A stretch of DNA of 64,000 nt from an uncultured virus (IMG/VR IMGVR_UViG_3300014826_000102) (lineage: Duplodnaviria > Heunggongvirae > Uroviricota > Caudoviricetes), in the IMG/VR virus record IMGVR_UViG_3300014826_000102, one strand, 5' to 3'. The translations under genes and the position numbers were made by a program. Every line of letters starts with the position of its first letter. Position 1 is the first letter of the stretch. The notes under the pieces are model-generated. The model searched no databases and was not told the origin of the DNA. It saw nothing but the letters and a program-made list of their open reading frames with translations. This document shows, piece by piece, positions 4,481 through 21,705 of the stretch.

Positions 4481-4741
4481 ATGACACAAAACGGCACGAA
4501 AAACGGAAAGTATGCGGTACAAGGTATCGAAACCCTACGGGCTAAGATCAACCGCGAATTTATTATCAGGCTGTCTAAGAACGGCAAAAGTCAGTTAGTT
4601 GGCTTTACACGTCTTTGCCTGATCGTTGGCGATCTTCACGCTGAACACTATGCGAAGAAAGCTATATGCAGTAAGCAGCAGGCCCCTACTTTCGTCAGAG
4701 GCGGTGCAGAAAGGCTTTGTGTGACGTTTTCACCACGTTAG
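4481..4741 (+). CDS. Hypothetical early protein
   Basis: First ORF of rightward operon. Confidence 0.55.
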   Translation: MTQNGTKNGKYAVQGIETLRAKINREFIIRLSKNGKSQLVGFTRLCLIVGDLHAEHYAKKAICSKQQAPTFVRGGAERLCVTFSPR

Positions 4742-4818
4742 ACGGACAATTACCCACAGGACAAAAAAAACGCTTGTAGCGGAGTTTTAACAACAAATTA
4801 ACAAAAGCATTTAGCAAA

Positions 4819-5016
4819 ATGGTAACAGCAGAAAAAGTAACAAGAGAGGATTTGAAGCAGATGCAGCCCGGAGAATCCCAAACGTTTAAACTACCCAATG
4901 CCCAGGCTTTGGATAGTGCGGGCACTACAGCCTACCAGATGGCGCGTATTGAGGATTGCACGTATTCCGTTGAAAAGGACTACGTAGAGAAAACAATTAA
5001 AATCACTAAAGCGTAA
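4819..5016 (+). CDS. Small hypothetical, possible DNA-binding protein
   Basis: 65 aa, operon context. Confidence 0.6.
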   Translation: MVTAEKVTREDLKQMQPGESQTFKLPNAQALDSAGTTAYQMARIEDCTYSVEKDYVEKTIKITKA

Positions 5017-5020
5017 TACT

Positions 5021-5227
5021 ATGATTATAACTAAGCCCGAAGTAATACCCGATGGCCTGTACAATCAGAAACAGGCAGCAGAGGCCCTACACCTTGACAG
5101 GCACACTATAGCCAGGTATGAGGCTAACGGTAGGCTTAAATTCAAGACACGTAAAGCCGATAACAGAAAGGTTACAACGGGTGCAGAGATAATCAGATGT
5201 TGGCAAGGTATGTACTTAATAAAGTAA
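5021..5227 (+). CDS. Excisionase/MerR-like HTH protein
   Basis: YNQKQAAEALHLDRHTIARY..GRLK. Confidence 0.75.
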   Translation: MIITKPEVIPDGLYNQKQAAEALHLDRHTIARYEANGRLKFKTRKADNRKVTTGAEIIRCWQGMYLIK

Positions 5228-5337
5228 AGTTATGACACAGATCATTATCACTATCGGATTAGCCGTATTTTGTGTAGTATGTATAGTTATCATAGCAAAG
5301 GACATCAATGCTATTGCAGAAGAAATGAGTTAAGCGT

Positions 5338-5562
5338 ATGAAACCGTATAGCTATAGTTCATTTCTTGCAAAGAAAGGAGGCCAAAAGGGAGCCTTACAG
5401 CGAATGGCGAAGAGTTATCCAGGCGAATATAAGTTAGTGTGTAAAATGCGTGAAACCTATAAAATCCTGTTTGACCTCAAAGCCAATCAGTTTGAAAACC
5501 TATTGGTACGGGCTTTAAGAGAGTTAGTTAACGACGGTATTTGTAAAAAACCAAGATTTTAA
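5338..5562 (+). CDS. Hypothetical protein
   Basis: ORF in early operon. Confidence 0.5.
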   Translation: MKPYSYSSFLAKKGGQKGALQRMAKSYPGEYKLVCKMRETYKILFDLKANQFENLLVRALRELVNDGICKKPRF

Positions 5563-5581
5563 TTTTTAAGCACTATTAGTT

Positions 5582-6049
5582 ATGAACGTAAAAATAACAT
5601 CCATATGCGAAATAGCCAAAGAGGGTTATATTTGTGTAGGAGTATCAGGAAACTTACATAAGCCCAAACACGTTTTACTAATAAATTATGAGACGGAAAA
5701 CGGCGAACAAGGCTTAACAACGCGAGGCGTAGGCGGTACTGATCCGTCGTATATTTGCGGCGCGTCAGAAGATATAAATAAGACACACAGATATAATGGT
5801 GTGGAAGAATCAGAAATAGAGTTCAACAGCACGCTATTGCTCTATAAAGTAACTGATTGGATAGGAGTTAATACCATACGTGTTTTAGCAAAAGAAGCAG
5901 AAACAGAGTATCGTAGAGAATTTGATTTCTATAAGAAAAGACTTATAAGGAATATTGTCGAATCTAAAGTAGAAACCGAAAAGGGACTTTTAGATAAACT
6001 TAGCGAAGCAAGTAATTTTAATGATTTATTGTATTTAAGCACTATTTAG
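5582..6049 (+). CDS. Hypothetical protein
   Basis: 155-aa AT-rich ORF in operon. Confidence 0.6.
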   Translation: MNVKITSICEIAKEGYICVGVSGNLHKPKHVLLINYETENGEQGLTTRGVGGTDPSYICGASEDINKTHRYNGVEESEIEFNSTLLLYKVTDWIGVNTIRVLAKEAETEYRREFDFYKKRLIRNIVESKVETEKGLLDKLSEASNFNDLLYLSTI

Positions 6050-6050
6050 T

Positions 6051-6614
6051 ATGAAAACAGATTTTAGCGTAAGCATCCAGGTTAATATCGGAGTAACGCC
6101 CGAAGTCGTACAGCTTGTTACGGCGATCCTGGCAAAGCAACCCGCCCAGATCGTAGCACCTGGTACGGTTGTAAGTAACGAACCACAGCCGGAGCCACAG
6201 GCAGCGGCGAAGAAAACCCGTAAGGGTAAAGGTGAGGCAACAGCCGAAGCACCCGCCAACGATGCAGCCGGAGAGCAGCAAGAGGCAGAGACCCCAACCG
6301 ATCAGCCGGAGCCACAGCCAGAAGCCGAGGCAGAGGCAGAGGCAAACCGCGAACTTACGGAAGAGGACGTAAGGGAAGCTATGCACAAGGTACGCCAACG
6401 TATCGAGGGCGAGAACTACAAGGAAAATACCGATAGTGAGAACTATAAGAAGTATCACCGGGTATTAACCCAGACCTTTAAGAACATTTCGGCTTTGTTA
6501 GGCAGCGACAAACCAAGCACTTTGCCCGCCGATCAACGCGCCGCTTTCATTAATGAGATTAACGCCCTGGTGGTTAACGAAAAGGGCGAGATAACAAAGC
6601 CAAATACCTTTTAA
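6051..6614 (+). CDS. Phage protein with acidic Pro/Glu/Ala linker
   Basis: Typical position before DUF2800 nuclease; low-complexity middle. Confidence 0.7.
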   Translation: MKTDFSVSIQVNIGVTPEVVQLVTAILAKQPAQIVAPGTVVSNEPQPEPQAAAKKTRKGKGEATAEAPANDAAGEQQEAETPTDQPEPQPEAEAEAEANRELTEEDVREAMHKVRQRIEGENYKENTDSENYKKYHRVLTQTFKNISALLGSDKPSTLPADQRAAFINEINALVVNEKGEITKPNTF

Positions 6615-6617
6615 GCT

Positions 6618-7775
6618 ATGCCAGGACAACACGCACTTTTAAGCCCGTCAGCAGCCCACCGTTGGCTGAATTGCACAGCAGCCCCGCGCCTTGAAGAGAA
6701 CGTAGAGGACAAAAGTAGAAGCTATGCAGACGAGGGAACGTTAGCACACGCCTATTGTGCCAAGCACCTGAAAACGTTTTTGGGCGTTGACACGGTAGAT
6801 GAAGATGCCGAAATAGCGCAGTTCTACGAACTTTACCACACGGGCGAAATGGACGAATACACCGATACGTACAAAACTATCGTATTGGAGAAATTCAACC
6901 AGGCACGTACCAAAACCCGTGATGCACAGCTTTTGGTAGAAGTACGTTTGGACTTTACCAAGTATATGCCGGAGGCTTTCGGTACGGCTGATGCCGTTAT
7001 TATCGCTGATGGCTGTTTGGAGATCATAGATTTTAAGTATGGTAAGGGCGTTAAGGTATCAGCCTATAATAATCCCCAAATGAAAATCTATGCTTTGGGA
7101 GCGTATGAGGCTTTTAGCTTTGAGTACAATATTACCCGCGTACGTATGACTATCGTACAGCCCAGGATTGATAACCTTTCAGAGTTTGAGATTACAGCCG
7201 ACGATCTACAGAAGTGGGCCGAAGAGGAATTGCGGCCAAAGGCCAAAGAAGCGTTTAGCGGCAAGGGTAAGCAGATGCCCGGTGCCTGGTGTCAGTTCTG
7301 CAAAGTGAAAGCCCGTTGCAAGGCCCTGACAGAAACAGCCCTGAATCTGGCAAAGGAAAAGGCAGACCCCAATCTGTTAACGCCGGAAGAGATCGCCAAC
7401 GACGTACTACCTTTCATTGATATTGTCAAATCCTGGCTAACAGGCGTAGAGGAATACACCCTACAGGCAGCTTTGAACGGTACGAACTACCCAGGCTATA
7501 AAATCGTTGCAGGGCGCAGTATCAGAAAGATAACTGATACAGAAGCCGTAATGCAAGAATTACAAAGCAACGCTTTTGCCGAAGAATCCTACATGAAGCC
7601 CCGCGAACTTAGAAGCATTACAGACCTTGAAAAGTTGGTAGGTAAGAAACGCTTTGCTGAATTGTGTGGTAAGTGGATTGAGAAGCCCCAGGGCAAACCG
7701 ACGCTTGTACCCGAATCGGACAAACGACCAGCCTACGATACTACAGCGGATGATTTTAAGGACGTGAAAGTATGA
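6618..7775 (+). CDS. DUF2800 / Cas4-like PD-(D/E)xK exonuclease
   Basis: HALLSPSAAHRWLNC, GTLAH, FGTAD, IIDFKYGKG, WCQFC..C. Confidence 0.88.
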   Translation: MPGQHALLSPSAAHRWLNCTAAPRLEENVEDKSRSYADEGTLAHAYCAKHLKTFLGVDTVDEDAEIAQFYELYHTGEMDEYTDTYKTIVLEKFNQARTKTRDAQLLVEVRLDFTKYMPEAFGTADAVIIADGCLEIIDFKYGKGVKVSAYNNPQMKIYALGAYEAFSFEYNITRVRMTIVQPRIDNLSEFEITADDLQKWAEEELRPKAKEAFSGKGKQMPGAWCQFCKVKARCKALTETALNLAKEKADPNLLTPEEIANDVLPFIDIVKSWLTGVEEYTLQAALNGTNYPGYKIVAGRSIRKITDTEAVMQELQSNAFAEESYMKPRELRSITDLEKLVGKKRFAELCGKWIEKPQGKPTLVPESDKRPAYDTTADDFKDVKV

Positions 7776-7897
7776 GTAAGGCAGTTACAGACGATCAGAG
7801 ACGTAGGGAGTATTACAGCGAACTATACACCCTTGAAAGAGATTACGACAGGGAGTTTAACAACCCCGAAATATGGTACTGATTAAAATAGAATAAT

Positions 7898-8380
7898 ATG
7901 CGAAGTCGTACAGCTAAGTGGTTTATCTGTAAAATCAGATACGAAAAGGTAAACGAGGACGGTGTACAGAAGAAAGTAACCGAAATCTACGTAGTCGATG
8001 CTTTGAGTTTTTCAGAGGCAGAGGCACGTATTACGGAGGAAATGCAAAGCTATATCAGCGGGCAGTTTGATATACTTAACATTGACCCGACCCCGTTTGC
8101 TGAAATATTCTTTTCTGATGAAGAGACAGCCGATAGGTGGTACAAAGCCAAATTGGAATTTATCACTATCGACGAAAAGACAGAAAAGGAGAAACGTAGT
8201 GCAGTTACATACCTGGTGCAAGCCGGGAGTTTCGACAAAGCCCTGAAATCTGTTAACGAGGTGATGGGCGGTACGATGATTGATTACGTAACGGCTAAGA
8301 TTGAGGAAACAAAGATTATGGACGTTTTCGAGTATGCGAAGAAAGAAAAGGCCGATGATCCAGAAGATGAAGATTTATAA
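7898..8380 (+). CDS. DUF4494-like Bacteroidetes protein
   Basis: WFICKIRYEK..YVVDALSFSEAEARI..ETKIMDVF. Confidence 0.8.
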   Translation: MRSRTAKWFICKIRYEKVNEDGVQKKVTEIYVVDALSFSEAEARITEEMQSYISGQFDILNIDPTPFAEIFFSDEETADRWYKAKLEFITIDEKTEKEKRSAVTYLVQAGSFDKALKSVNEVMGGTMIDYVTAKIEETKIMDVFEYAKKEKADDPEDEDL

Positions 8381-8403
8381 ACCCTAAAATTCAAAAAAGA
8401 GAA

Positions 8404-8733
8404 ATGGCAAAATTTGCACAAGTGATTGAGTGCCTTAACAAAGGCGGTAGTGCCTGGCGTGCAGAATGGAACGCCAAAGGCGAAAACCGGGAGATCGTTA
8501 AACAGATACCCCAGACAATCAGCAAAGACGTTGTACCTAAAATGACATCTTTGCCAAGTAGTATCAAGCCAAAGGTTAGCACCGTTGGCAACGGTGAAAT
8601 ATCATACCACGACCAGGTATTGCAGATCAGCTTTACAGACGATGGCAAAACCCCGGCAATGGCTACCTACTATATCCCAACGTGGGAAGATATTTTTGCA
8701 GAAGATTGGGGGCTTGTTACGCCCGCTGAATAA
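8404..8733 (+). CDS. DUF2829 / Tad2-like anti-defence protein
   Basis: N-terminal F..VIECL.KG..AWRAEWNAKG and C-terminal PTWEDIFAEDW match the family pattern. Confidence 0.65.
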   Translation: MAKFAQVIECLNKGGSAWRAEWNAKGENREIVKQIPQTISKDVVPKMTSLPSSIKPKVSTVGNGEISYHDQVLQISFTDDGKTPAMATYYIPTWEDIFAEDWGLVTPAE

Positions 8734-8777
8734 ACAGAGTTACACAACCCATTTTAAACAATTAAATTTTAAGAGTT

Positions 8778-9338
8778 ATGATTAAGCCAATTATCAAAGA
8801 GGGTACTAAGGTAGTTTTCGGCCCGTGCCGTTTGTCCTATACCCATGTGTTCAACAAGTACAACCCGGACGGCCCAGAGGCAGAGGGTAAGTTTATGACT
8901 AGCGTACTGATCCCTAAGACGGAAAAGGAAACTATCGAGGCTATCAAGAAAGCCGTAGAAGAGGCCAAGAAACAGGGTATCGTCAACAAGTGGGGTGGCA
9001 AGGAACCCAAAAAACTTGATATGCCGCTACGTGATGGCGACGAAAAAGACGATGAGAACTACGAAGATCATCTGTTTCTTAACGCCAAGAGCAACACACG
9101 CCCTGGTATCGTCGATAAGAACAAAGTGCCCATTGTTGACGAAGAAGAGGTGTACAGCGGTGTTTGGGCTATCATATCGGTTACTTTCTTTGCCTACGAC
9201 AAAAACGGTAATCGCGGTGTAGCTTGCGGCCTCAACAACATTATGAAGTTTAAAGATGATGATCGTTTCGGTGGCTGCGTTTCGGCTGAAAGCGACTTTG
9301 GAGACGTTGACCTACTAGACGATGACGAAGATTTGTAG
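8778..9338 (+). CDS. DUF2815 single-stranded DNA-binding protein
   Basis: RLSYTHVF, PLRDGDE, YSGVW, GNRGVACGLNN, acidic tail. Confidence 0.88.
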   Translation: MIKPIIKEGTKVVFGPCRLSYTHVFNKYNPDGPEAEGKFMTSVLIPKTEKETIEAIKKAVEEAKKQGIVNKWGGKEPKKLDMPLRDGDEKDDENYEDHLFLNAKSNTRPGIVDKNKVPIVDEEEVYSGVWAIISVTFFAYDKNGNRGVACGLNNIMKFKDDDRFGGCVSAESDFGDVDLLDDDEDL

Positions 9339-9374
9339 AACTTTTCTTTAAAGCCATAAGATACGTTTAGATGT

Positions 9375-9410
9375 GCGCCCGCCGTCGTAAAGAGGTGGCG
9401 GCGGGCGTTT
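9375..9410 (+). terminator. GC-rich hairpin / probable terminator
   Basis: cgcccgccgtc...ggcggcgggcg followed by ttt. Confidence 0.5.
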
Positions 9411-9434
9411 AGGAAACAACTTAAAGCAAGAAAA

Positions 9435-9764
9435 ATGACAGCAACGATTTTTATATTTCTGATAGTGACCGCAGTTATAGCGACGGGGATATACGCTACG
9501 CGCGTCAGGACTAAGAGTATCAGGCAGTTTAACCGACGTTACGCAAGCCTGTACAGGATTAACCACCTATCGCAGCAGAATTTTACCAAAGCCGTAAATA
9601 TTGTTATGGATTTGGTGAAGTCAGACGGTGCAGACATTGAAATTATCTACAAAGATAAGGTGCTATTTAACGGCTATATGGATATTGAGCCGGAAACAGG
9701 CAAAGACGTGCCCCATTTCTGGTACAATAAAGAAGTGTTAGACAGATACGGTATTGAATATTAA
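9435..9764 (+). CDS. Hypothetical protein with N-terminal TM segment
   Basis: Hydrophobic N-terminus. Confidence 0.6.
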   Translation: MTATIFIFLIVTAVIATGIYATRVRTKSIRQFNRRYASLYRINHLSQQNFTKAVNIVMDLVKSDGADIEIIYKDKVLFNGYMDIEPETGKDVPHFWYNKEVLDRYGIEY

Positions 9765-9777
9765 ACCAGGTTAAGTT

Positions 9778-10179
9778 ATGACTAAGAAACAGGTCATAGA
9801 GAGAGACGAAAACGGACAGCCGATTATTGACGTAGCCCAGGAGGAAATACAGGCCGAGATACAGGTTAGTATTGACAAGCTGTTGGCAAAGCGCGAGGAA
9901 GCCCGTAAGAAGTACGGTAAGCTAAAGCGTACCACCTTTGAAGTTATCGAAGATAAAGGGCTGATGAATCCCGAAAGCCTGTTTGAAGAAAACAAGAAGA
10001 TCGAGGCTAAAGAATCCAAGTTAAGTGCAGCAGAGCGTCAGTTTGTACAGCAAATCGTTTTGCTTTCGATGCAGGTAGTATTTGAGCGTAAGATTAAGGA
10101 GGCCCGGGAAGCAGCAGCCGAGTTGGATAAACCCGTATTGCCAAAGAGGAAAAGAGCAAAGAAAAACAATAAGAGGTAA
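9778..10179 (+). CDS. Hypothetical helical protein
   Basis: ORF in operon. Confidence 0.6.
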   Translation: MTKKQVIERDENGQPIIDVAQEEIQAEIQVSIDKLLAKREEARKKYGKLKRTTFEVIEDKGLMNPESLFEENKKIEAKESKLSAAERQFVQQIVLLSMQVVFERKIKEAREAAAELDKPVLPKRKRAKKNNKR

Positions 10180-10184
10180 TCAGT

Positions 10185-12137
10185 ATGCGAGAATTAGGAA
10201 TAGACATAGAGACTTACAGCAGCAACGATCTTGTGAATTGTGGAGTTTACAAGTACGTTGAGGCCCCAGACTTTACTATATTGCTTTTTGCCTATAGTGT
10301 TGATGGCGGCCCCGTCGTATGCGTTGACTTTGCGACGGGTGAGAAATTGCCAGACGATGTATTTGCAGCCCTGACAGACCCCGACGTTACCAAGACAGCG
10401 TTTAACGCAGCTTTTGAAAGAATCTGTATTAGCGTCTATTTCTTTGGCGGTAAGTTGTTAGACCCGAAGCAATGGCGTTGTACGATGGTGTTAGCAGCCC
10501 GTATGGGTTTACCCCTATCGTTAGGTCAGTGTGGCGAAGTGCTGCATTTAGCAGAGGGTAAAATGACAGAGGGTAAGGCCCTAATACGTTACTTTAGTGT
10601 ACCTGGTAAGAACGGTAAGCGGCATTTGCCAAGTGATGCGCCCGATAAGTGGGACACGTTCAAGAAATACAATATCAGGGACGTAGAGATAGAACAGGCC
10701 ATTAAAAGAAAGGTGCAGCGTCTAAAACCCGCTGACTTTGACGAAGAGTTGTACGTAGCCGATCAGGAAATAAACGACAGAGGCGTTAAGATAGATCGTA
10801 CCCTGGTTGATGCAGCGGCCCGTTTCGATGATGAATACAAAGCGCAGCTATTAGCAGAGGCACAGCAGCTAACGGGTATGGAGAATCCTAACAGCCCGGC
10901 ACAGATTAAGGAGTATATCAAGAATACTACAGGCTTTACCGTAGAGACCTTGAATAAAGGAAACCTTGATACCTTAGACGAAAAGCTGATCTATTGGCCG
11001 AAAGCACAGAGGGTGATAGCCATACGTAGGGAAATGGGTAAGACCTCAAATAAGAAGTATGAGGCTATGCAGAAATGCGTTTGCAAGGATGGCAGAATAC
11101 ACGGGCTTTTGCAGTTTTGCGGTGCAGCCCGTACAGGTCGATGGGCGGGCCGTCTGGTGCAGGTGCAGAACCTACCACAAAACCACCTGGCATCATTGGA
11201 CTTTGCCCGTAGCCTGGTACGCCAGGGTGACTTAGACGAATTTGAAATGAATTACGCCAACGTTACCCAGGTACTTAGCGAACTGATCCGTACGGCTTTC
11301 GTTGCAGAACCCGGTAAGACGTTCCACGTTTGCGACTTTTCCGCTATCGAGTGCCGCGTTATTGCCTGGCTTGCATCCGAGGATTGGGTATTGGATGTTT
11401 TCAGGTCAAATGGTGACATCTATTGCGCCAACGCATCTAAGATGTTCAAAGTACCTGTAGAGAAGCACGGCCAAAACGCGCAGCTACGACAAAAAGGTAA
11501 GATCGCTACCCTGGCTTTGGGCTACGGCGGTGGTGTATCAGCTTTAGAGGCTATGGGCGGTAGCAAGTTAGGGTTAACCGAAGATGAAGAAAAGGAGATC
11601 GTTAAACTTTGGCGTGACAGCAACCCGCGTATAGTAAGAATGTGGGCCGTCATTGAGAAAGCCGCTATTACAGCCATCAAGACAGGCGAAAGCGTGACGG
11701 TGTACCGTAATATCGTAATCGGTAAACGTTGGGGTATGCTGACTATTACGCTACCATCAGGGCGTACTATCTGTTATCCCCGTGCAGAGGTTGAAACAGA
11801 GTATAACGACGGTTGGAGAGGCGACCACGATATTATAGAGTATGAGGGTCTAAACCAGACTACAAAGAAATGGGGTAAGGTTAGAACGTATGGCGGTAAA
11901 CTGACGGAGAACATAGTACAGGCCGTAGCCCGCGACATATTGGGCATAGTCATACTACGTGCAAAGGCAGCAGGGCTTAATATCGTTTTCCACATACACG
12001 ATGAAATCATAGTAGAGGCTACACCCGATCAGACGTTAGCAGACGTTGAGGCTTTGTTTAGCAAGCCGATTGATTGGTGCAGAGACCTACCACTAAAGGG
12101 AGCCGGATATACCACACCGTACTATCTGAAAGACTAA
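10185..12137 (+). CDS. Phage family A DNA polymerase
   Basis: DIETY exonuclease motif, RTGRWAG, DFSAIECRV (motif A), RQKGKIATLALGYG (B), HIHDEI (C). Confidence 0.93.
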   Translation: MRELGIDIETYSSNDLVNCGVYKYVEAPDFTILLFAYSVDGGPVVCVDFATGEKLPDDVFAALTDPDVTKTAFNAAFERICISVYFFGGKLLDPKQWRCTMVLAARMGLPLSLGQCGEVLHLAEGKMTEGKALIRYFSVPGKNGKRHLPSDAPDKWDTFKKYNIRDVEIEQAIKRKVQRLKPADFDEELYVADQEINDRGVKIDRTLVDAAARFDDEYKAQLLAEAQQLTGMENPNSPAQIKEYIKNTTGFTVETLNKGNLDTLDEKLIYWPKAQRVIAIRREMGKTSNKKYEAMQKCVCKDGRIHGLLQFCGAARTGRWAGRLVQVQNLPQNHLASLDFARSLVRQGDLDEFEMNYANVTQVLSELIRTAFVAEPGKTFHVCDFSAIECRVIAWLASEDWVLDVFRSNGDIYCANASKMFKVPVEKHGQNAQLRQKGKIATLALGYGGGVSALEAMGGSKLGLTEDEEKEIVKLWRDSNPRIVRMWAVIEKAAITAIKTGESVTVYRNIVIGKRWGMLTITLPSGRTICYPRAEVETEYNDGWRGDHDIIEYEGLNQTTKKWGKVRTYGGKLTENIVQAVARDILGIVILRAKAAGLNIVFHIHDEIIVEATPDQTLADVEALFSKPIDWCRDLPLKGAGYTTPYYLKD

Positions 12138-12248
12138 AAATGCCTACACGGGCATATAAGTAAGTAAGCCGATAGATTACACCCCGAAGCCCTAAAAACC
12201 GCTTAGAATTGACATTTAACAAAATATTAACATTTAAACGTAAAGAAT

Positions 12249-12497
12249 ATGGAAGAAAAAGTAAAAGTAGTAATTGAAATGGATAAAGAACTTATCCGAA
12301 ACGCCATGCTATTAACGGACATTTCAAGTAAAGGCCCAAAGACAGCAGCAGAACTATTGGAAAAGACTACCGGGGAAATAATACTTAATCCCGAACTCTT
12401 AGGCGATCAGAAAGACCAGATATTATTTGTGTTTGCCGTTGCAGCAATAGGATCGGTAGCCGCTGAATTGGAGAAAAAAGAAAACAACGAAAAATAA
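12249..12497 (+). CDS. Hypothetical protein
   Basis: ORF after intergenic 13-mer box. Confidence 0.55.
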   Translation: MEEKVKVVIEMDKELIRNAMLLTDISSKGPKTAAELLEKTTGEIILNPELLGDQKDQILFVFAVAAIGSVAAELEKKENNEK

Positions 12498-12502
12498 GAA
12501 AT

Positions 12503-12682
12503 ATGATCTACGTAATTATTCTTTTGGTACTATACGTATCAAGTTGGGGCGTTGTATTAGCAAAGCACGGAGAACCGAAAGAGGGAAAATATAACATTTT
12601 CACCTATACTATCTTTCTTGCATTGGAGTTATGGCTACTTTACAAGGGTGGTTTATTTAACGTATTCCTTTCAAGTCAATAA
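12503..12682 (+). CDS. 59-aa two-TM membrane protein (not in ORF track)
   Basis: MIYVIILLVLYVSSWGVVLAKHGEPKEGKYNIFTYTIFLALELWLLYKGGLF... Confidence 0.6.
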   Translation: MIYVIILLVLYVSSWGVVLAKHGEPKEGKYNIFTYTIFLALELWLLYKGGLFNVFLSSQ

Positions 12683-12856
12683 CAATTAAACGTAAAACTT
12701 ATGGCAGCAAAAGAAATAGCAAGCCAGGTACACGAACAAAAGGAGCCTAAAAAAGAAAAGATAATTTGGGTAGCATCCCCATATACGGCGGTTAGTGCCT
12801 GGCTGCAATACAGATTTTAATTAGCACTATTTACAAATAATAAAAACGTAAGAGTT

Positions 12857-13585
12857 ATGACAGAGAATCAAGAATTAAAGATGCAGCTTTTAGATAAGTT
12901 TGCAAACATTGAAAAGCCGGAAACGGTAGATTTCTGCAAAGCCGCTTTTGATTGGTTAGCAGACGAGCCAGAAGAAAATCTGATAGCGAAGCCTACAAAT
13001 GCCCAGGTTAGCGCAGATACAGAAAGTAAGCCCGATGGTATCTACCTGATATTTGAGAGTGGTAAAGCACTACCTTTCGATCCTGATAAGGGCGTAGAAA
13101 GCGACCAGGTAGCAAACGACGGCCCCGTTAAGTATATCGGTATCAAGTGGGGTAGTCATACCCTGGCAGTGGCTTTGCACGATCAGGCAAACAGCGACGA
13201 TATAACGCTGACTGCAAAGAAAGACGATACCGATTACAACGGCTATATAGATAACTATCTGGATGCAGTAGCCGATTGGGACGGTAAGGCCAATACCGAA
13301 CACCTAAAACAGATCGGGCTAAACAAGGATATTACGTTATCTGATAACGAGTACATACCCGCTTTGGGTGAAATGCTGTTTGTATTCCTGAATCGTAAGG
13401 TCGTTAACCAGGCTTTAGAGGCCGTAGGCGGTACGCTCATTGATGGCGTTTGGTATTGGACTTCTACCGAGTACAGCGCGACCAACGCCTGGCTTCTGAA
13501 CCTTAGCAGCGGCCGCGCCAGCTACTACTTCGCTAAGGCTTCGCTCACGCTTCGAGTTCGGCCCGTCTCAGCATTTCAACTTTAA
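12857..13585 (+). CDS. DGR target protein 1 (CLec/DUF1566-like C-terminus) in early region
   Basis: DWDGKANT, YIPALGEM, YWTSTEYSATNAW..RVRPVSAF; carries variable repeat. Confidence 0.85.
   Translation: MTENQELKMQLLDKFANIEKPETVDFCKAAFDWLADEPEENLIAKPTNAQVSADTESKPDGIYLIFESGKALPFDPDKGVESDQVANDGPVKYIGIKWGSHTLAVALHDQANSDDITLTAKKDDTDYNGYIDNYLDAVADWDGKANTEHLKQIGLNKDITLSDNEYIPALGEMLFVFLNRKVVNQALEAVGGTLIDGVWYWTSTEYSATNAWLLNLSSGRASYYFAKASLTLRVRPVSAFQL
13454..13576 (+). repeat. DGR variable repeat VR1
   Basis: Matches 50195-50314 with 12 substitutions and one 3-nt indel. Confidence 0.88.
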
Positions 13586-13611
13586 TCTTTGAACTTGATA
13601 CTTTAATCTTT

Positions 13612-13629
13612 GCCCGGCGAAAGCCGGGC
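13612..13629 (+). other. DGR target-recognition hairpin
   Basis: GCCCGGC-GAAA-GCCGGGC downstream of VR1. Confidence 0.8.
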
Positions 13630-13647
13630 CATAACAAGGCAAACAAG

Positions 13648-13920
13648 ATGAAGATAACAAAGAGCAACAGAAAAGCCCGAATAACAGAGCAAGAGGTTAA
13701 CACGGCTTTGTACGTTTCAAGTGATAGCGATAATAACTATTATTACTATCAGCCGTACAAGGATTTGCCAATACTCTATGAGATAGCCGTACAGGTACGT
13801 ATCTTAGGTTTCTGGTTTACTATCTGGAGTGCAAGCGTAGAAATTTCAGACGGTGACAGCCGGGCTATAATTCAGAAAAGAGCAAGTGAAATAATAGAAT
13901 TATTGGAGGGTATATTATGA
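13648..13920 (+). CDS. Hypothetical protein
   Basis: ORF in operon. Confidence 0.55.
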   Translation: MKITKSNRKARITEQEVNTALYVSSDSDNNYYYYQPYKDLPILYEIAVQVRILGFWFTIWSASVEISDGDSRAIIQKRASEIIELLEGIL

Positions 13921-14037
13921 ACGACGAAACAAAGAAACGCCCTGTTTGGGTGCAGTTGGAATTATTCCCCGAAATGAAAGCCGCTAAAGCGAGGGGGGGG
14001 GGGATCAGTCAGTAACCAATCAAAATGATACAGCCAA

Positions 14038-14187
14038 ATGAAAGCGAAACTTTGCCGTACTTGCATATCATACAGCCCTGATGATGAAACACCGGGCTAC
14101 GGTACTTGCGATCTGACGGACTGCCAGGTATGCGAGTACGCGCAAGATTGCATAGATTGGCGGTATCATAAAATTTGGAGGCCCTGA
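14038..14187 (+). CDS. 49-aa Cys-rich putative metal-binding protein (not in ORF track)
   Basis: MKAKLCRTCISYSPDDETPGYGTCDLTDCQVCEYAQDCIDWRYHKIWRP. Confidence 0.55.
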   Translation: MKAKLCRTCISYSPDDETPGYGTCDLTDCQVCEYAQDCIDWRYHKIWRP

Positions 14188-14402
14188 CAATGGATAAGAA
14201 ACAGCAGCTATACGGAGTTACGGCGATTAACCGATTATCGCACAAACGCGAAATCATTTCTAATGCAGCCGACTTTGAGACTACAGAACGGAAACGTAGG
14301 AGCCTGTTAAAGACCAGGCCGGAGAAACGCCCGTACATCTATCCCCTAACGGTCAAATATCCCAAACAACTTAATTTATTTACAAAGCAGTTAGACGTAT
14401 GA
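14175..14402 (+). CDS. Hypothetical protein
   Basis: Stop overlaps start of the clamp gene. Confidence 0.55.
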   Translation: MEALTMDKKQQLYGVTAINRLSHKREIISNAADFETTERKRRSLLKTRPEKRPYIYPLTVKYPKQLNLFTKQLDV

Positions 14403-15598
14403 AATTCAAAGTAGATAGAAACAGACTTTTGGAGGCTATGCAGAAAGCAAGCCAAGCAGTAACAGGCAAAAGCAGCCGTTTACTAAACGAGATTTACCGA
14501 TGCTTTGTTTTCAAGGCAAGAAATGAAAGTCTAACCGTCACGGCTACCGACGGCGAGATTTATATTAGTACACGGGTTGGTATCAAAAACACCGATGGCG
14601 ATAAAGACTTTGCCCTGTACGCGCCCCAATTCCTGAAAGCCATTAAATCAGTAGACCCACAGGAACTAACGATAGAGGTTTTGGAGTATCAGGTTATTGT
14701 TACGCATGAAGTAGGCAGCTTTGCACTACCATTAACGGACATGAGCGACATGAGCCAAGCACCCTACGCGGACGTGGATAGTAAAAAAGCATTAGACTAC
14801 AGCCGCGTACACCGACACACCTTTGAGGCCCCCGGCTTGCTTTCCATCCTGAATAAGTGCAAATACGCAATGGCCGAAGATGAATTGCGCCCGGTGATGA
14901 ACGGCGTAGTTATGAGCCTCAAGGAAACCCACACCGATTTTGTGGCATCCGACGGACATAAGTTAGTACGCATCCGCAAAGCCTCAATTACTGACAGCCG
15001 CCCCGCAGACTTTATTTTTCCAAAAAAGGTAGTCAATATCCTGTTAAAGATATTGCCTAAGACGGGATTTGTAGATACGTGGTTTAATGAATATGCAGTT
15101 GATTGGAAGAGCGAGGAACACCCCGGAGAGCAAACGCCAAAATCGGGCTGTCTTATGAGCGTTGAGGGTACGGAAATCCTGTTTAAGCCCATACCGGGCC
15201 GCTACCCGAGTTACAACAGCGTAATACCCACTACGTTTACTAAGGAACTGACCATAGACCGCATACAACTTTTGAAGTCGCTACAGCGTCTTAGCCAGTT
15301 CACAGCGGAAAGCGGGCTTATTATATGGAATCTTAACCCTACCCGCCTGATGCTACAGGCCGAAGATACCGATTTTTCGGTAAATGGCAGCGAGACTTTG
15401 CCCTGTACGTACAAAGGCGAGGTTTGCCGGTTAGGATTTAAGGACTATTCGTTTGTTCAGACCCTACAAAATAGTACCGCACCCGAAATCGTAATGAAAG
15501 GCAGCGGAATTACTGCTGCGTTTATTATCGAGCCTATCCCGCAGCCGGATAACGAAGAAGTGACTATGCTACTTATGCCAATGTTAATAAATGACTAA
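14399..15598 (+). CDS. dnaN: DNA polymerase III beta sliding clamp homologue (phage-encoded)
   Basis: LTVTATDGE, DELRPVMNGV, FVASDGHKL, GRYPSYNSVIP, LLMPM C-terminus. Confidence 0.88.
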   Translation: MKFKVDRNRLLEAMQKASQAVTGKSSRLLNEIYRCFVFKARNESLTVTATDGEIYISTRVGIKNTDGDKDFALYAPQFLKAIKSVDPQELTIEVLEYQVIVTHEVGSFALPLTDMSDMSQAPYADVDSKKALDYSRVHRHTFEAPGLLSILNKCKYAMAEDELRPVMNGVVMSLKETHTDFVASDGHKLVRIRKASITDSRPADFIFPKKVVNILLKILPKTGFVDTWFNEYAVDWKSEEHPGEQTPKSGCLMSVEGTEILFKPIPGRYPSYNSVIPTTFTKELTIDRIQLLKSLQRLSQFTAESGLIIWNLNPTRLMLQAEDTDFSVNGSETLPCTYKGEVCRLGFKDYSFVQTLQNSTAPEIVMKGSGITAAFIIEPIPQPDNEEVTMLLMPMLIND

Positions 15599-15603
15599 GA
15601 GGT

Positions 15604-16143
15604 ATGGAAAAAAATAGCGAATTAAAATTTGCCCTTGAAAGTTCACAGGACAAAGGGCAATACCCCGACATCTTTAACGCCGATTTGGGTAACGATTTTC
15701 GTTTAGAAACGAAGCCTGAATATTTCCCGTTTATTGATACGCCGCGCAAAGTCGTAATAGAGATAACAAGTTTTATAGGGGCTTGCGCAGGGGCAGAACA
15801 TTACTACGCAGAAATCCGCGCAGATGGTATTAGTATCTGTAGCAAAGAAATAAGAAACGGAAAAGAGCATACCGTTAGACATGGTGGCTATGTGTGTGAA
15901 GAATACGCCAAACTACCCAAGGAGAAAAAAGATATTTGGGATAGTTGCTACTCAATAGAAGTTACACGCCCTGTTACCCAAGAAATGATAAACGCGAATC
16001 CGAGCCGATGGGAAAACTACGAAGTCGGCTATTGGACTAACGCCTTTGACACCAAAGAAAGCGTTATCGAAGTCGCAAAAAGAATTGTCGCCGCCCGGTT
16101 TACAAAAGATTGGGTAGTAAAGATTGATGATTTAACAGCATAG
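15604..16143 (+). CDS. Hypothetical protein
   Basis: 179-aa ORF. Confidence 0.6.
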   Translation: MEKNSELKFALESSQDKGQYPDIFNADLGNDFRLETKPEYFPFIDTPRKVVIEITSFIGACAGAEHYYAEIRADGISICSKEIRNGKEHTVRHGGYVCEEYAKLPKEKKDIWDSCYSIEVTRPVTQEMINANPSRWENYEVGYWTNAFDTKESVIEVAKRIVAARFTKDWVVKIDDLTA

Positions 16144-16147
16144 CCGT

Positions 16148-17052
16148 ATGAAAGTAACTAATAAACCCGCCAACTTTGACGATAAACTGCAACACAGCAT
16201 CGAACTTTTGCAGAAGTCCGAGGCTTTGGCTTTACGCTACTACGATAAAGGCTTTTATCTGGCTTTCAGCGGTGGCAAAGATAGTCAGGCACTTTATTAC
16301 GTTGCAAAGTTGGCGGGCGTTAAATACGAATCCCACTACAGCCTAACCACGTTAGACCCGCCGGAGTTGGTACGCTTTATCCGCAGAGAGTACCCGGACG
16401 TTATAATAGACCGCCCGGAAATGACCTTTGCCCAACTTTGCTTAAAGAAAAAGGCTTTGCCAACTATGCTAATGCGTTTTTGTTGTGCAGTTCTGAAAGA
16501 AACCAAGGGCGCAAATACCGTTACCCTGACAGGGGTACGCCGTCAGGAATCCGTACAGAGAAGCCACAGGAACGAAGCCGAGTTAGTAACCCGCCGAAAG
16601 GATAAGTTTACCGGCACATTAGAGCAGTTAGACCAATTTACACGAAGCAAAGAAGTTGAGGGCGTACAATGTGTTAGGGGTAATGACAAAATCGTAATTA
16701 ACCCGATTATAGATTGGGTTGAGGCCGACGTTTGGTATTTCCTGAATGAAGTAGTACACGCTAACCATTGCGAGTTATACGATAGAGGTTGGAAACGCAT
16801 TGGCTGTTTGTTTTGCCCGGCGGCAAGCCAAAAAGAAATCGTTATGCAGGGGGGGTATATCCAAAATACAAAGCCCTGATTTTACGAACTATCCACAGGC
16901 TACGCGAAAACGGCTACATGAATAAGTACAGCGACCTAACCGACGAAGAAATTTTCGAGTGGTGGATAAGCAAAGAGAATATGCAAAAGTGGTACTACGA
17001 CCACAAAGTGCAAATGCAGTTGTTTAACATGAACGAATTTAAGAAGATATGA
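16148..17052 (+). CDS. PAPS-reductase-family protein, frameshifted at G7 tract (16849-16855)
   Basis: FSGGKDS PP-loop, RFCC..LKE, GVRRQES..R, RIGCLFCP; C-terminal part (YPKYK..IFEWW) lies in the -1 frame. Confidence 0.8.
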
Positions 17053-17810
17053 TAGTTTTAAGTTTATTCGACGGTATGAGTTGCGGACAAATCGCTTTGC
17101 GCGAATTGGGCTTTACGATAGATACCTACTACGCAAGCGAGGTAGATAAGTTTGCAATCGCTAACACGATGGCGAACTTTCCCGACACGGTGCAGTTAGG
17201 CGACGTGCGAGACATAGACGCAAAGGCGTTAGGACATATCGACTTACTGATAGGCGGTAGCCCGTGCCAAAGTTTTTCCTTTGCCGGAAAGCGGGCGGGC
17301 ATGAGTACAAAGACCAATGAGAAGATACTAACCTTATCCCGGTACATGGAACTAAAGGCACAGGGCTTTGAGTTTGAGGGTCAAAGTTACCTGTTTTGGG
17401 AGTACGTCAGAATCTTACACGAAGTCAGGCAGACTAACCCCAACGTCTATTTCATGTTGGAAAACGTGGAAATGGGCAAGCAATGGGAGGCCGTTATTAA
17501 CGAGGCTTTAGGCATTAGAGGCGTACACATTAACAGCGCGTTGGTATCAGCCCAAGTAAGAAAGCGTATCTATTGGACTAACATTAAGACGTTTCAAACC
17601 GATATGTTTAGCCCGCCTGACAGCGCAATACCGCAGCCGAGAGACAGGGGTATTTTGCTACGGGATATATTGGAAAGCGACGTACCCGAAAGATACTACC
17701 TTAAACCCGAAGTAGTAAAGAATCTGTTAGCGCATAAGGCGCGTAACAAAGAAGCCGGTAACGGCTTTGGCGCAACGCCACGCGGGGGGGGAGAAAATGA
17801 ACGCTCTTAG
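17049..17810 (+). CDS. C5-cytosine DNA methyltransferase, N-terminal part (motifs I-VIII)
   Basis: LSLFDGMSCG, GGSPCQ, LENV, QVRKRIYW; ends just after a G8 tract. Confidence 0.88.
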   Translation: MIVLSLFDGMSCGQIALRELGFTIDTYYASEVDKFAIANTMANFPDTVQLGDVRDIDAKALGHIDLLIGGSPCQSFSFAGKRAGMSTKTNEKILTLSRYMELKAQGFEFEGQSYLFWEYVRILHEVRQTNPNVYFMLENVEMGKQWEAVINEALGIRGVHINSALVSAQVRKRIYWTNIKTFQTDMFSPPDSAIPQPRDRGILLRDILESDVPERYYLKPEVVKNLLAHKARNKEAGNGFGATPRGGGENERS

Positions 17811-18064
17811 AGTTGGCGGCAGATGTGTTTACGACTTAGTGTTAGTAGAAAATGAAAGAGTTTGTAAAGATGGACTATAAAGGTTACGGCGGTTTAGGTA
17901 CACGCCCATACATTGCAGAAGCGAATGAGAATAAAGAATAACAGGGGGGGGGAATTGCCCACCTTGAAAAGAACATAAAACGTAGAAACGAAAAAGCCAA
18001 CGCCCTATTAGCGACATCATACAAAGGAGCGTGGGCGAACGGAACTACACTAATAGTTGAAGAT

Positions 18065-18718
18065 GTGAAAGAGTTTGTAAAGATGAACTACAAAGGCAGG
18101 ATTTCACCTAATCAGGACAAAGCAAATTGCCTATCGACTAAGAACTACCACAGCGATATGGATTTGATTTGTGTTGCCCAAAGAGGCCGAAATTACGGAG
18201 GTAGGACGATGCAGCAACTTGAAACCGCGCCCGATCCGAACAAGACAAATTGCCTTACAACGGTAGCCAAAGACAACCTAATATTGCAGAGACCACGCGG
18301 AGCGAACAAAGGCGGGATGCACATAGACAAGTCGCCTACCCTATCCGCTAACGCATGGGAACAGAACAATTTAGTAGTAGAAATGAAAGAAAAGAGCGTA
18401 AAGCAGATTAACCCAAGCCGGGAATGTAACGGTACACAGCCCCGGCAACAAAACCGCGTATATGATACCGACGGGCAGGCCCCGGCGTTGATGGAGGGCC
18501 ACGGAGGCAGAACTATTAACGTATTGACGGGGGGGGATGCAGCCGAAACGAGAATAAGGAGGCTAACCCCTACGGAGTGCGCCAGCTTGCAGACTATCCC
18601 GGATTGGTACAAATGGGCCGTTTCAGAGACACAACAATACAAGATGTTGGGTAACGGTTGGACGGTTGAGGTTATTAAGCACATACTTTCATTTTTACCC
18701 GATGAACTTAAAAAGTAA
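18065..18718 (+). CDS. C5-cytosine DNA methyltransferase, C-terminal part (variable region and motifs IX-X)
   Basis: RRLTPTECASLQT, YKMLGNGWTV; frame is open upstream to 17942 through a G9 tract. Confidence 0.85.
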   Translation: MKEFVKMNYKGRISPNQDKANCLSTKNYHSDMDLICVAQRGRNYGGRTMQQLETAPDPNKTNCLTTVAKDNLILQRPRGANKGGMHIDKSPTLSANAWEQNNLVVEMKEKSVKQINPSRECNGTQPRQQNRVYDTDGQAPALMEGHGGRTINVLTGGDAAETRIRRLTPTECASLQTIPDWYKWAVSETQQYKMLGNGWTVEVIKHILSFLPDELKK

Positions 18719-18725
18719 TACGGAT

Positions 18726-18929
18726 ATGAGCAAGAAATTTTTTAGTCAGATGGTGAGTGCGTCAATGAACGCCGGATTTGTCAAAATCCTACAGGACAAA
18801 TTAGCCGACAAGGAAAACCCGTTTGAAATGAAAATGAGACGGATAGTTAAAGGCATTTGGGAAGTGAAGATTTACACCGACAAAGAGCATTTGCCATATT
18901 TCAAGAACCTATTAAACAATCTGGTATGA
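18726..18929 (+). CDS. Small hypothetical protein
   Basis: ATG start within ORF 18666-18929; stop overlaps primase start. Confidence 0.5.
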   Translation: MSKKFFSQMVSASMNAGFVKILQDKLADKENPFEMKMRRIVKGIWEVKIYTDKEHLPYFKNLLNNLV

Positions 18930-21376
18930 GCGTACAGGAGTTAAGCCACGATTTCACTTTGGATATAGCGACAGCCCACAGCCGACTATCTAAGAAGTGG
19001 AAAAACAAGAAATGGCAATGGAGCGAGTTAGTAGCCAGATGCAGCGAAACTAAGCGTACAGGCGAAAGCGTCAGCGAGTATATGAAAATGACCCGCGAGG
19101 AACAAAGCGACATCAAAGATGTTGGCGGTTTTGTAGGCGGTTATCTTTCAGGTGGTACGCGTAAGACGGCTAACGTTATGTGGCGCAGTGTGGCGACGCT
19201 TGATATTGACTACGGCACGCTGAATGTGTGGGACGATTTCACTATGCAGTTTGACTTTGCGGCCATGCTATACAGCACGCACAAGCATACAGCAGAGAAA
19301 CCGCGTTATCGCCTGGTATTCCCATTGAGCCGTAACGTCAAGCCTAACGAGTATGAGCCGCTTTGCAGAAAGATTGCTGATGCAGTAGGTATTGACCTGT
19401 TCGACATTACGACGTATCAGTTACCACGCCTGTTCTATTGGCCATCAACGTCTAAGGATGGTGACTACGTATTTGAGTACCAGGACGGCCCCGCTTGCGA
19501 CGTAGATAAGGTACTGAAAAGCTACGTTAACTATGCGGACGTATCAGAGTGGCCCGTATCAGCCAGAGAGGGCGACGTGATAGCCCACGAAATACGTAAG
19601 GCGGGTGATCCTTTGGAAAAGCCAGGATTGATAGGCGCGTTTTGCCGTGCATACACTATCGAGGACGCTATAGACAATTTCCTACAGGATGCCTACGAAA
19701 GAACGGGTACAGATGGACGCTATACCTACAAGTTAGGTAGTGTGGCCGGGGGCCTGGTATGCTATGAGGGTAAATTTGCCTACAGCCACCATGAGACAGA
19801 CCCGGCAAGTAAGCAGCTTTGCAACGCTTTCGACCTTTGCCGTATTCACTTGTTTGGCGTACATGATGAGGGAACCAGGCTAACAGATATAACTAAAATG
19901 CCGTCGTACCTGAAAATGCAGGATTTTGCAGCCAAAGATAAGAACGTACGCGTATTGCTCACTAAGGAGAGACGCGCCGACGTTGAGGCTGATTTTGAGG
20001 GTGTGGATTTCACGGATGCCGGGGATAGCGCAGCTACAGAAACCAATACGGATTGGATGGCAGATTTAGAGTACGACAGAAAAGGTGCTATCAAATCGAC
20101 GCTGAAAAACATTATCTGTATTCTGGAAAACGACCCAATGTTAGCAGGGCACTTGTGGCACGATCTGTTTAGCGGCTTTGACCTGGTGAGAAACGGTTTA
20201 CCCTGGGATCGTAAGGCGAATCAGTGGGGAAACCGCGACGATGCCAATTTACGCGTTTATCTGGAAGAGAACTACGGAGTAACGGGTAAGGATAAGATCA
20301 AGGATGCAAAGGACGCGGTATTTACCCGCCACAGGGTACACCCGATACGCGAGTACCTTAACGGCCTGGTGTGGGATGGTGTACCACGACTTGAAACTTT
20401 GATGGTTGACTATCTGGGTGTAGAAGATACCAAGCTAAACCGTGCAATGACGCGTAAACATTTCGTTGCAGCCGTAGCCCGCGTTATGCAGCCGGGTTGT
20501 AAGTACGACTATTGCCTGATCGTAACAGGTACAGAGGGAATAGGTAAAAGTACCCTGTTTGCCGTTATGGGTGGTGAGTGGTTTAACGACAGCCTGGTAA
20601 CGATGGAGGGTAAAAGCGGTATGGAGCAGGCACGCGGTGGATGGGTTATAGAGTTGCCCGAATTGGGCAGTATCAAGCGATCCGACGTTGAGCAGGTAAA
20701 AGCCTATATCAGCCGTCAGGATGATACATACAGACCCGCTTACGGTACGGTTACGGAAAAGCACCCGCGCCAATGTATATTTTGTGGAACCACCAACGAA
20801 ACATACTTTTTGAAAGGTGACACGGGAAACCGTCGTTTCTGGGTGATGGCTGCAAACACAGACTTACGTAAGCATGAGAACGTTAAAGCAGACCTGACAG
20901 CAGAACGCGATCAGCTTTGGGCCGAAGCCGTAGAGTATTGGCGAAGAGGTGAAAAGCTATACCTACCCGCAGACCTGGAAAGGGAGGCCAGAAAGAAGCA
21001 AGCCGATTATAACGACGAAGCCGACGACCCGATAAAAGATATGCTAATAGCATATCTTGACACTAAGTTACCGCCGGATTGGGCTACCTGGGACTTAGCA
21101 AGGCGTAGAGCCTGGTTTAAGAATCCCGACCCGTTGGACGCGGAGGCTACAGAAACCAGGGAGCGTTTTTGTGTTGCAGAGTTTCTTTGTGAGCGTCTGG
21201 GTAAGGACATGAGCGATAAGGACTATAAGTATATGGCGCGTAGGGTTGGGCGTATCATAGATGATTTGCCCGATTGGGAGCGTATCAGTACGACTAAGCA
21301 CGCTATAGCCCTGTACGGAATCCAAAAAGGGTTTAGGAGAAAGGTAATTTTAGACGAAGACGATGCAGATATTTAA
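18926..21376 (+). CDS. Primase-helicase (VirE/VapE family)
   Basis: LDID, YSTHKH, RYRLVFPL primase motifs; GTEGIGKS Walker A; GTTN, TGNRRFW. Confidence 0.9.
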   Translation: MSVQELSHDFTLDIATAHSRLSKKWKNKKWQWSELVARCSETKRTGESVSEYMKMTREEQSDIKDVGGFVGGYLSGGTRKTANVMWRSVATLDIDYGTLNVWDDFTMQFDFAAMLYSTHKHTAEKPRYRLVFPLSRNVKPNEYEPLCRKIADAVGIDLFDITTYQLPRLFYWPSTSKDGDYVFEYQDGPACDVDKVLKSYVNYADVSEWPVSAREGDVIAHEIRKAGDPLEKPGLIGAFCRAYTIEDAIDNFLQDAYERTGTDGRYTYKLGSVAGGLVCYEGKFAYSHHETDPASKQLCNAFDLCRIHLFGVHDEGTRLTDITKMPSYLKMQDFAAKDKNVRVLLTKERRADVEADFEGVDFTDAGDSAATETNTDWMADLEYDRKGAIKSTLKNIICILENDPMLAGHLWHDLFSGFDLVRNGLPWDRKANQWGNRDDANLRVYLEENYGVTGKDKIKDAKDAVFTRHRVHPIREYLNGLVWDGVPRLETLMVDYLGVEDTKLNRAMTRKHFVAAVARVMQPGCKYDYCLIVTGTEGIGKSTLFAVMGGEWFNDSLVTMEGKSGMEQARGGWVIELPELGSIKRSDVEQVKAYISRQDDTYRPAYGTVTEKHPRQCIFCGTTNETYFLKGDTGNRRFWVMAANTDLRKHENVKADLTAERDQLWAEAVEYWRRGEKLYLPADLEREARKKQADYNDEADDPIKDMLIAYLDTKLPPDWATWDLARRRAWFKNPDPLDAEATETRERFCVAEFLCERLGKDMSDKDYKYMARRVGRIIDDLPDWERISTTKHAIALYGIQKGFRRKVILDEDDADI

Positions 21377-21387
21377 GTAGAAAATTG

Positions 21388-21705
21388 GTAAACCAAAGGT
21401 AAACCAAACGGGCCAAAAAGGTAAACCGAGTAAACCAAACTACATTTTTTAACAATTAGTGAGGTAAACCAAGTAAACCAAAGGTAAACCAAATAAATCC
21501 GTTTTAGTTTACCGCAAAACCCCGATAAATAAAGGGTTTGCAGCAATGGTAAACCAAGTAAACCAAAATTTTAGTAAAAATGTATAAGAATAAAAATACA
21601 TATAAAAATAGTAATAAACGGAGAACCAACGCGTACGCGTACGCGAGACTTCTAAACGTTATCGCACAAAATGTTACCCGCGTACGCGCGAGGAATTGGT
21701 TTACC
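21388..21705. repeat. Iteron-like GTAAACC array, candidate replication origin
   Basis: Nine direct GTAAACC copies (21388-21564), inverted copies near 21506 and 21698, AT-rich stretch, ACGCGT palindromes. Confidence 0.75.

Follow-up and report, generated by a model that had tools for sequence, protein, structure and literature searches.

A second, early-region DGR target in a Bacuni-like prophage carries an N-terminal hairpin found on distal targets of unrelated phages

A 242-residue protein encoded between polA and the clamp gene of a probable prophage is the second, distal target of a DGR whose other target lies in the tail module, and the balance of the comparisons tips towards its being an early, non-virion binder with variable specificity. 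The window, the whole stretch of 64,000 nt that was analysed, comes from an uncultured Caudoviricetes virus (IMG/VR IMGVR_UViG_3300014826_000102), which would be a Bacuni-like temperate siphovirus of a Bacteroidales host. Phage DGRs are usually explained as tail-adhesin host-range switches, and early-region distal targets have been reported three times with no function given. The two-target layout is already published for the Bacuni phages, as is a non-structural counter-defence hypothesis (Quimbyvirus 2021; Nature 2025); what is added here is the uncoupling of Bacuni host range from VR1, a hairpin common to early-region CLec genes, and a predicted homodimer.

RESULTS

The distal target gene lies in the early region, far from the tail target

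An earlier note, made from the sequence alone, had described a 242-aa ORF without a signal peptide between polA and the clamp gene, and this description holds (Table 1). In particular, polA (10185-12137, PF00476) lies upstream and the clamp gene (14399-15598, PF00712) downstream, with small ORFs intervening, and a hydropathy scan detects neither a hydrophobic signal nor a membrane segment (top 19-residue hydropathy of -0.13 in the first 40 residues and 0.87 in the whole protein). The starts of VR1 and VR2 are 36,741 nt apart, in agreement with the separation of 36.7 kb from the tail target given before. The N-terminus had been called unrelated to the tail target, which is correct for residues 1-58 and not further, the common domain beginning near D60-G61. 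A promoter and terminator scan returned counts no higher than chance.

Table 1. Features of the distal target, the tail target and the DGR remnant, by position in the window
Feature	Position	Strand	Basis or detail
Probable prophage extent	3256..53478	.	22-bp direct repeat at both ends
Second, distal DGR target gene (242 aa) with N-terminal helical hairpin, linker and CLec domain	12857..13585	+	ORF, model, homology
N-terminal two-helix hairpin, residues 3-35	12863..12961	+	helices 3-15 and 24-35 in model; profile search
CLec (Lcl_C/DUF1566, BACOVA_04982-like) domain, residues 59-242, with predicted homodimer surface	13031..13582	+	
VR1, ending in an IMH-like 3' sequence and one codon longer than the TR	13454..13576	+	comparison to L027 TR
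Two TTAATCTTT copies, the first with the stop codon; also after VR2	13582..13611	+	motif positions
GC-rich DNA hairpin, GAAA loop, GCCCGGC-GAAA-GCCGGGC	13612..13629	+	-10.3 kcal/mol
Tail-module DGR target, 253 aa, VR2 50195-50314, DNA hairpin 50351-50372	49562..50323	+	Lcl_C E 1.4e-8
avd stub, 44 aa	50394..50528	+	bAvd and PHROG 3206 matches; ends at deletion junction

The 22-bp direct repeat copies that bound the prophage (3256-3277 and 53457-53478, with an integrase gene at 52216-53442) are, we infer, its att sites. Just beyond the left one are AT-rich 22-nt tandem and inverted repeats (2363-2453). Several other features of the region were recorded. A Tad2-like (Thoeris anti-defence) gene at 8404-8733 belongs to the same early operon (PF11195, E 2.7e-8), and such a gene adjoins polA in several relatives too. 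The C5 methyltransferase at 17049-18718 is seemingly split into two ORFs; a 31-nt sequence is directly repeated there (17853 and 18066), and a similar two-part pattern is seen in relatives. A perfect 53-nt inverted repeat (21154-21206 and 25563-25615, 4.36 kb apart) brackets the helicase-to-small-terminase block and could be either the border of an invertible segment or an assembly feature.

The distal gene keeps its place and its sequence among relatives. It adjoins polA in 38 of 43 distal loci (3 being duplicates), and, of 40 records submitted to a genome search, 30 were rated at least 90% complete and 26 of these contain it. The four records without it have no polA or VapE matches either, and therefore do not show that it is dispensable. 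In the core preceding the VR, dN/dS is 0.11-0.36 in 11 of 13 pairs (two pairs were saturated), a measure by which the core outside the VR is under purifying selection.

VR1 and VR2 were written from one template

The earlier note had claimed a full DGR target site, and the VR, the IMH-like end, the TTAATCTTT repeats and the GAAA hairpin are all found, the latter two also at the tail target; the claim stands for the site (VR, IMH and hairpin being complete) and not for its machinery. The two TTAATCTTT copies are at 13582-13590 and 13603-13611, and the IMH-like end is CATTT in VR1 and VR2, the TR of the relative L027 having CACTT. Within the window, the end of the distal gene matches that of the tail gene with 82.5% identity over 189 columns (E 4e-47), spanning its last 120 nt and 55 nt past the stop codon. 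The DNA hairpin downstream of the VR is retained at distal loci across divergent lineages. The Bordetella phage BPP-1 has a single target, the tail-fibre tip protein Mtd, whereas the window's lineage has two. As at VR1, the BPP-1 target site comprises a VR, an IMH and a downstream DNA hairpin, and PMC3240598 describes a hairpin of this type as needed for target recognition in that phage.

The window's own TR being deleted, VR1 and VR2 were compared with the TR of L027, a locus that matches the window at 96% identity in the flanking DNA. VR1 differs from this TR at 16 of 36 adenines, at 1 of 69 other bases and by a 3-nt insertion, the extra codon falling in an AAC run; VR2 differs at 11 of 36 adenines and at none of 69 other bases. 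This mismatch pattern shows that VR1 and the tail VR2 were both rewritten from one TR by adenine-specific retrohoming. The assertion that distal and tail targets are diversified by the same template thus survives in that both VRs were written from one TR type, and fails in that ongoing diversification in this genome is unsupported.

Further, the type of template matters. Non-adenine mismatches of the window's VR1 number 1 of 69 against the L027 TR and 10 of 67 against the L082 TR; in the closest orthologues (L001-L004, 66-86% identical) they number 12 of 69 against the L027-type TR and 0 of 67 against the L082 TR. VR1 therefore follows the TR type of its own phage, so that the gene end is overwritten by whichever TR the phage carries. 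In the window, 6 of the 8 doubly mutated codons are alike between VR1 (13466-13528) and VR2 (50207-50269), all six in the 5' part, the figure between genomes being 18% (post hoc p 7e-4). Either drift of the lost TR or recombination between the two VRs may explain this. That a single cDNA generally homes to both VRs was considered and rejected: 27 of 117 mutated codons are shared within genomes versus 166 of 918 between them, which is no clear excess.

VR1 is as diversified as the tail target among relatives

Across 20 TR-VR1-VR2 triplets (26 were attempted, 6 with unparsed repeats were dropped, and many are close relatives), changed adenines number 292 of 762 in VR1 and 289 of 760 in VR2, and changed positions of other kinds 1 of 1377 and 2 of 1376, respectively. 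The distal target is hence as variable as the tail target in these 20 related phages, as its description as hypervariable had implied, and the adenine-position variation that the earlier note proposed to look for is present: VR1 is clearly not invariant. Variation among relatives is concentrated at TR-adenine codons, and the amino-acid spectra at Asn-derived codons are alike in VR1 and VR2 (Tyr, Gly, Asn, Ser; chi-square p 0.36), so nothing in them marks a different kind of ligand.

The adenines of the TR do not change equally. Those in AAC or AAT are changed in 55-66% of cases; those before G, or in GCA or TCA, are almost never changed, even if the change would be synonymous. Mutation of TR adenines thus appears strongly dependent on context or boundary. 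Synonymous adenines in VR1 are rarely changed too (2 of 27 in GCA), and for that reason the low change at Lys, Glu and Arg codons is not assignable to selection. Four distal targets (P0015, P0030, P0040 and P0043 in alignment A1) end like the tail target, in SAFIA and not SAFQL, which suggests that the distal and tail target sites have exchanged 3' ends.

The DGR machinery has been lost from this prophage

Neither a TR nor an RT was found in the window by blastn, motif scan or tblastn, nor is there a third copy of the repeat. Aligned with its closest tail locus, L027 (96% identical there), the window jumps from position 3664 to position 5421 of L027, so that about 1.76 kb is missing; the deletion took the TR, the RT and the remainder of avd. 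Judged by this junction, the DGR of this prophage is dead and does not count as an active one. With a truncated avd and no TR or RT left, ongoing diversification here is unsupported. The machinery was lost after the rewriting, and VR1 is now fixed unless a compatible DGR acts in trans.

Such losses are infrequent. Of 80 related tail loci examined, 68 have enough downstream DNA and 64 of these keep the RT; three more of the 68 have no RT match, and a fourth has half an RT. In L090, L092 and L099 the RT is deleted between the tail target and the lysin. Run X1, the only run to contain the entire stretch and a possible source of the window, yields one contig over 12200-14500 with 0 differences at a depth of 33.8, although contigs drop rare variants; this single variant-free contig fits a fixed allele. 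In the RNA run X15 a relative's contigs cover the gene, and such contigs carry no strand, level or timing.

The CLec domain is predicted to form a homodimer

The domain called CLec-like in the earlier note is recovered as such by structure: the model superposes on the BACOVA_04982 CLec domain (4EPS, Z 8.7, rmsd 3.3, 156 residues aligned) and, at lower similarity, the C-terminal domain of Legionella Lcl (8Q4E, Z 4.9). Pfam Lcl_C/DUF1566 hits the distal target weakly and below cut-off (E 6.5e-4), a sequence search of the PDB returns only Lcl (E 0.076), and Foldseek of the model against the PDB returns nothing at E<=0.001. BACOVA_04982, Lcl and Lcl_C/DUF1566 thus share the CLec fold with the distal target, and BACOVA_04982 and Lcl are longer, adhesin-type proteins, whereas the distal target has no export signal and a hairpin in place of the stalk. 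The model has a pLDDT of 72.3 when built from an 84-sequence alignment versus 37.6 from 41 near-identical sequences, and consists of N-terminal helices (3-35), a disordered linker and the CLec domain, with the VR itself at low confidence.

The distal target is predicted to form a homodimer. In particular, the prediction, made with two copies, scores 0.80 compared with 0.01 for the best of three controls. Among proteins of solved structure, this mark was attained by 20 of 30 pairs and by 1 of 23 single chains; resemblance to related CLec domains with existing structures may account for part of the result. Contact agreement between runs is at least 49% and pLDDT at least 83. The predicted interface is two-fold symmetric (C2), passes through G99, L174 and G219, and involves the CLec core and part of the VR loop, with the N-terminal hairpin outside it. 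Moreover, residues of the dimer surface that are conserved among distal targets differ in tail targets (W98/E, Y134/R, D136/T, L178/A), a systematic difference that argues against pairing with tail targets.

The N-terminal hairpin recurs across phage types and CLec families

A profile of the hairpin (residues 1-39) retrieves 55 proteins among 1.84 billion representatives: 25 with this CLec domain, 3 with a DLGLPSG-type CLec domain, 2 with WG repeats, 1 that is YopX-like, 4 long repetitive ones that look spurious, and 20 short ones, a mix of fragments and apparently free-standing proteins. Pfam, the ESM Atlas and known structures (Z<=4.1, generic helix pairs) offer no convincing match to the hairpin, and its presumed likeness to UBA or docking domains is unsupported. 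WG-repeat relatives in viral contigs were tried as a clue to context and set aside; only the repeat part matched, making them uninformative.

The DLGLPSG-type gene of locus L146 follows a methyltransferase gene in a replication module without polA, in a replication-initiator-type prophage. It is a true distal target, with 22 of 22 TR mismatches at adenines, and by BLASTP its protein has only the hairpin in common with the distal target (47% over 36 aa, E 2e-7). The hairpin scores at least 15 bits in 111 of the best 120 of 3783 L146 homologues, and in none of 92 tail targets. PF26707, annotated on many of these homologues, may already name part of the L146 family. The L146 prophage (record G042; L153 804-1412, L155 1451-2449) has three DGR targets, two of their VRs being N-masked in the record: one in the tail, one in the replication module, and a third, with a different pair of N-terminal helices, next to a repressor-like gene. 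Prevotella Lak phages (megaphage records H9-H14) encode a CLec homologue of the DLGLPSG type (36% over 56% of the L146 protein).

Other phage types carry the same combination. The sheath-encoding 112-kb phage BS-TP1, inferred from its gene content to be Quimby-like, encodes hairpin plus CLec in gp76, located in the early region on the opposite strand to the structural genes, and 11 of 11 mismatches of this gene to a TR about 50 kb off are at adenines. In the Mu-like fragment L007 a hairpin plus CLec gene directly follows the transposase genes, its own TR being outside view. CLec homologues without the hairpin also occur outside structural modules, in csAssE-Sib, D3 and PA5oct. D3 orf68 is the first gene after cI. 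PA5oct gp104 (E 1.4e-15) falls in a block reported as early-transcribed, which also includes virion proteins; gp104 is not among the three structural proteins named in the main text of that report, and no supplement row was found under the names tried. No description of a shared hairpin module was found in the searched passages of the mostly open-access literature.

Bacuni phages share the layout, and in three isolates host range follows the tail target

Bacuni_F1 gp26 (Bacuni_F1_00026) is a distal target 46% identical to the window's over 97% of its length, and its gene has the same place, between polA and methyltransferase genes. It carries the hairpin as well (17.8 bits). One TR serves two VRs in Bacuni as in the window's lineage, and the tail target-avd-TR-RT-lysin cassette has the same position; the Bacuni cassette is intact, whereas the window prophage keeps only a remnant without TR and RT. 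With full-length homology and a position downstream of polA, the window's gene is of the Bacuni type, its cassette a remnant. In passages of PMC8143477 the VR1 gene of the Bacteroides uniformis phages Bacuni F1, F2 and F4 is termed the distant target and both targets are regarded as putative fimbrial-tip adhesins; those passages contain no analysis of the N-terminus.

The three Bacuni isolates permit a comparison of alleles with hosts (PMC8143477 Table 1). F1 and F2 share a host, and are 11 aa apart in the distal target and 1 aa apart in the tail target; F1 and F4 have different host strains, an identical distal target and tail targets 13 aa apart. Host range in these three isolates therefore tracks the tail VR and not VR1, for which no allele-host correlation was found. 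Further, F1 and F4 propagate although the Lys of the KAS motif, conserved elsewhere, is Glu in them, a hint that the protein is dispensable in culture.

Similar arrangements are described elsewhere. In Quimbyvirus a CLec target distal to the structural module lies near methyltransferases, as in the window, and a non-structural role in phage-host conflict was proposed in a part of Benler 2021 (PMC8008677). Quimbyvirus differs in belonging to another phage group, in its opposite-strand target and in its frameshifted RT, and is likened here by that description and not by sequence. Passages of a Nature 2025 paper (PMC12629997) report that in four gut prophage species a second VR lies away from the RT cassette, near methyltransferases, and likewise propose a phage-host-conflict role for distal phage DGR targets; they are without protein-level analysis, and these prophages too are likened by description and not by sequence. 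Part of PMC5758913 lists many non-adjacent DGR targets within prophages.

DISCUSSION

An early, non-virion role is favoured indirectly by the conserved position of these genes in replication or early operons and by the uncoupling of Bacuni host range from VR1. An early-region position is no proof of such a role, because the early block of PA5oct holds virion proteins, and the adhesin-type fold seen in the model (4EPS fimbrial tip, Lcl) would count against an intracellular reading. The protein would be made from the early/replication operon and would stay outside the virion, acting as a two-part adaptor: the CLec homodimer would present variable loops rich in Tyr, Gly and Ser to a partner inside the cell that is not the same in every host, most plausibly a defence or regulatory protein of the host or a protein of a competing phage, and the conserved N-terminal hairpin would dock a constant partner or multimerise the dimer. 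The role of the hairpin is a guess, because the hairpin lies outside the confident dimer interface. The tail target would set adsorption, and the distal target would tune compatibility after entry.

Two other readings place the variable protein outside the cell. It could be a second virion adhesin, an early-encoded accessory binder of receptors or mucus that is attached to the head or tail through the hairpin, which we regard as rather unlikely. The CLec fold is of the adhesin type, the residue spectrum is that of the tail target, and this is how the Bacuni proteins are read in parts of PMC8143477; viral DGR targets are mostly predicted tail proteins in the part of PMC8144416 concerned. Against it, the same hairpin is found in siphovirus, sheath-encoding and Mu-like phages with differing virions and also on WG-repeat and YopX-like proteins, Bacuni host range did not track VR1, and the predicted dimer surface is unlike that of tail targets. 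The protein could also be a soluble cytoplasmic lectin that is freed at lysis and then blocks receptors, mops up decoys or hinders rival phages outside. Such a lectin would reconcile a surface-binding fold with the missing export signal, and would draw on the same TR-derived repertoire as the tail adhesin; it appears improbable, however, in that an early-operon position would be unusual for a lysis-time product and the conserved hairpin is left unexplained.

The remaining two readings concern regulation and chance. A variable sensor that uses the hairpin to act on a regulator or replication protein of the phage, in the lysis-lysogeny decision or in the exclusion of co-infecting phages, would suit the temperate look of all four phage types (integrase or transposase genes), the repressor-like gene beside the third target of the L146 record, and D3 orf68 directly after cI. 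We give it little credence, the hairpin-less homologues occurring in csAssE-Sib and the PA5oct jumbo phage, which we take to be lytic. Least of all do we expect the distal target to be a passenger, a duplicated target end rewritten merely for its IMH and hairpin, with diversity of no benefit. The tolerated loss of the DGR in the window and in three more of 68 tail loci and the changed conserved Lys of Bacuni F1 and F4 agree with a passenger, and the low change at some VR codons is not assignable to selection, but the core is under purifying selection, the downstream DNA hairpin is retained across divergent lineages, and the design is met again in combination with other TR types and another CLec family.

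The early, non-virion binder may have a wider counterpart. Tentatively, unrelated Bacteroidales phages could share a class of intracellular adaptive effectors in which the hairpin is fused to an exchangeable binder and passes captured host proteins to a constant partner. The phage types would be the polA siphoviruses, the sheath-encoding 112-kb phage, Mu-like phages and replication-initiator-type prophages; the exchangeable binder would be either of two DGR-diversified CLec families, or WG repeats. The adaptor would be hypermutable, and the captured proteins would be host defence or regulatory proteins.

The present prophage is a poor model for such a system because its DGR is deleted, and it shows only that both targets remain intact after the machinery is lost. 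Overall, the comparisons narrow the question in that the distal allele and host range do not go together in the only available isolates, and distal targets of unrelated phages and two CLec families have an N-terminal module in common. The hairpin can serve to recognise the class by sequence, and is a defined part that could be deleted or used as bait. If the effector-class reading is true, these phages would practise DGR-driven counter-defence inside the cell.
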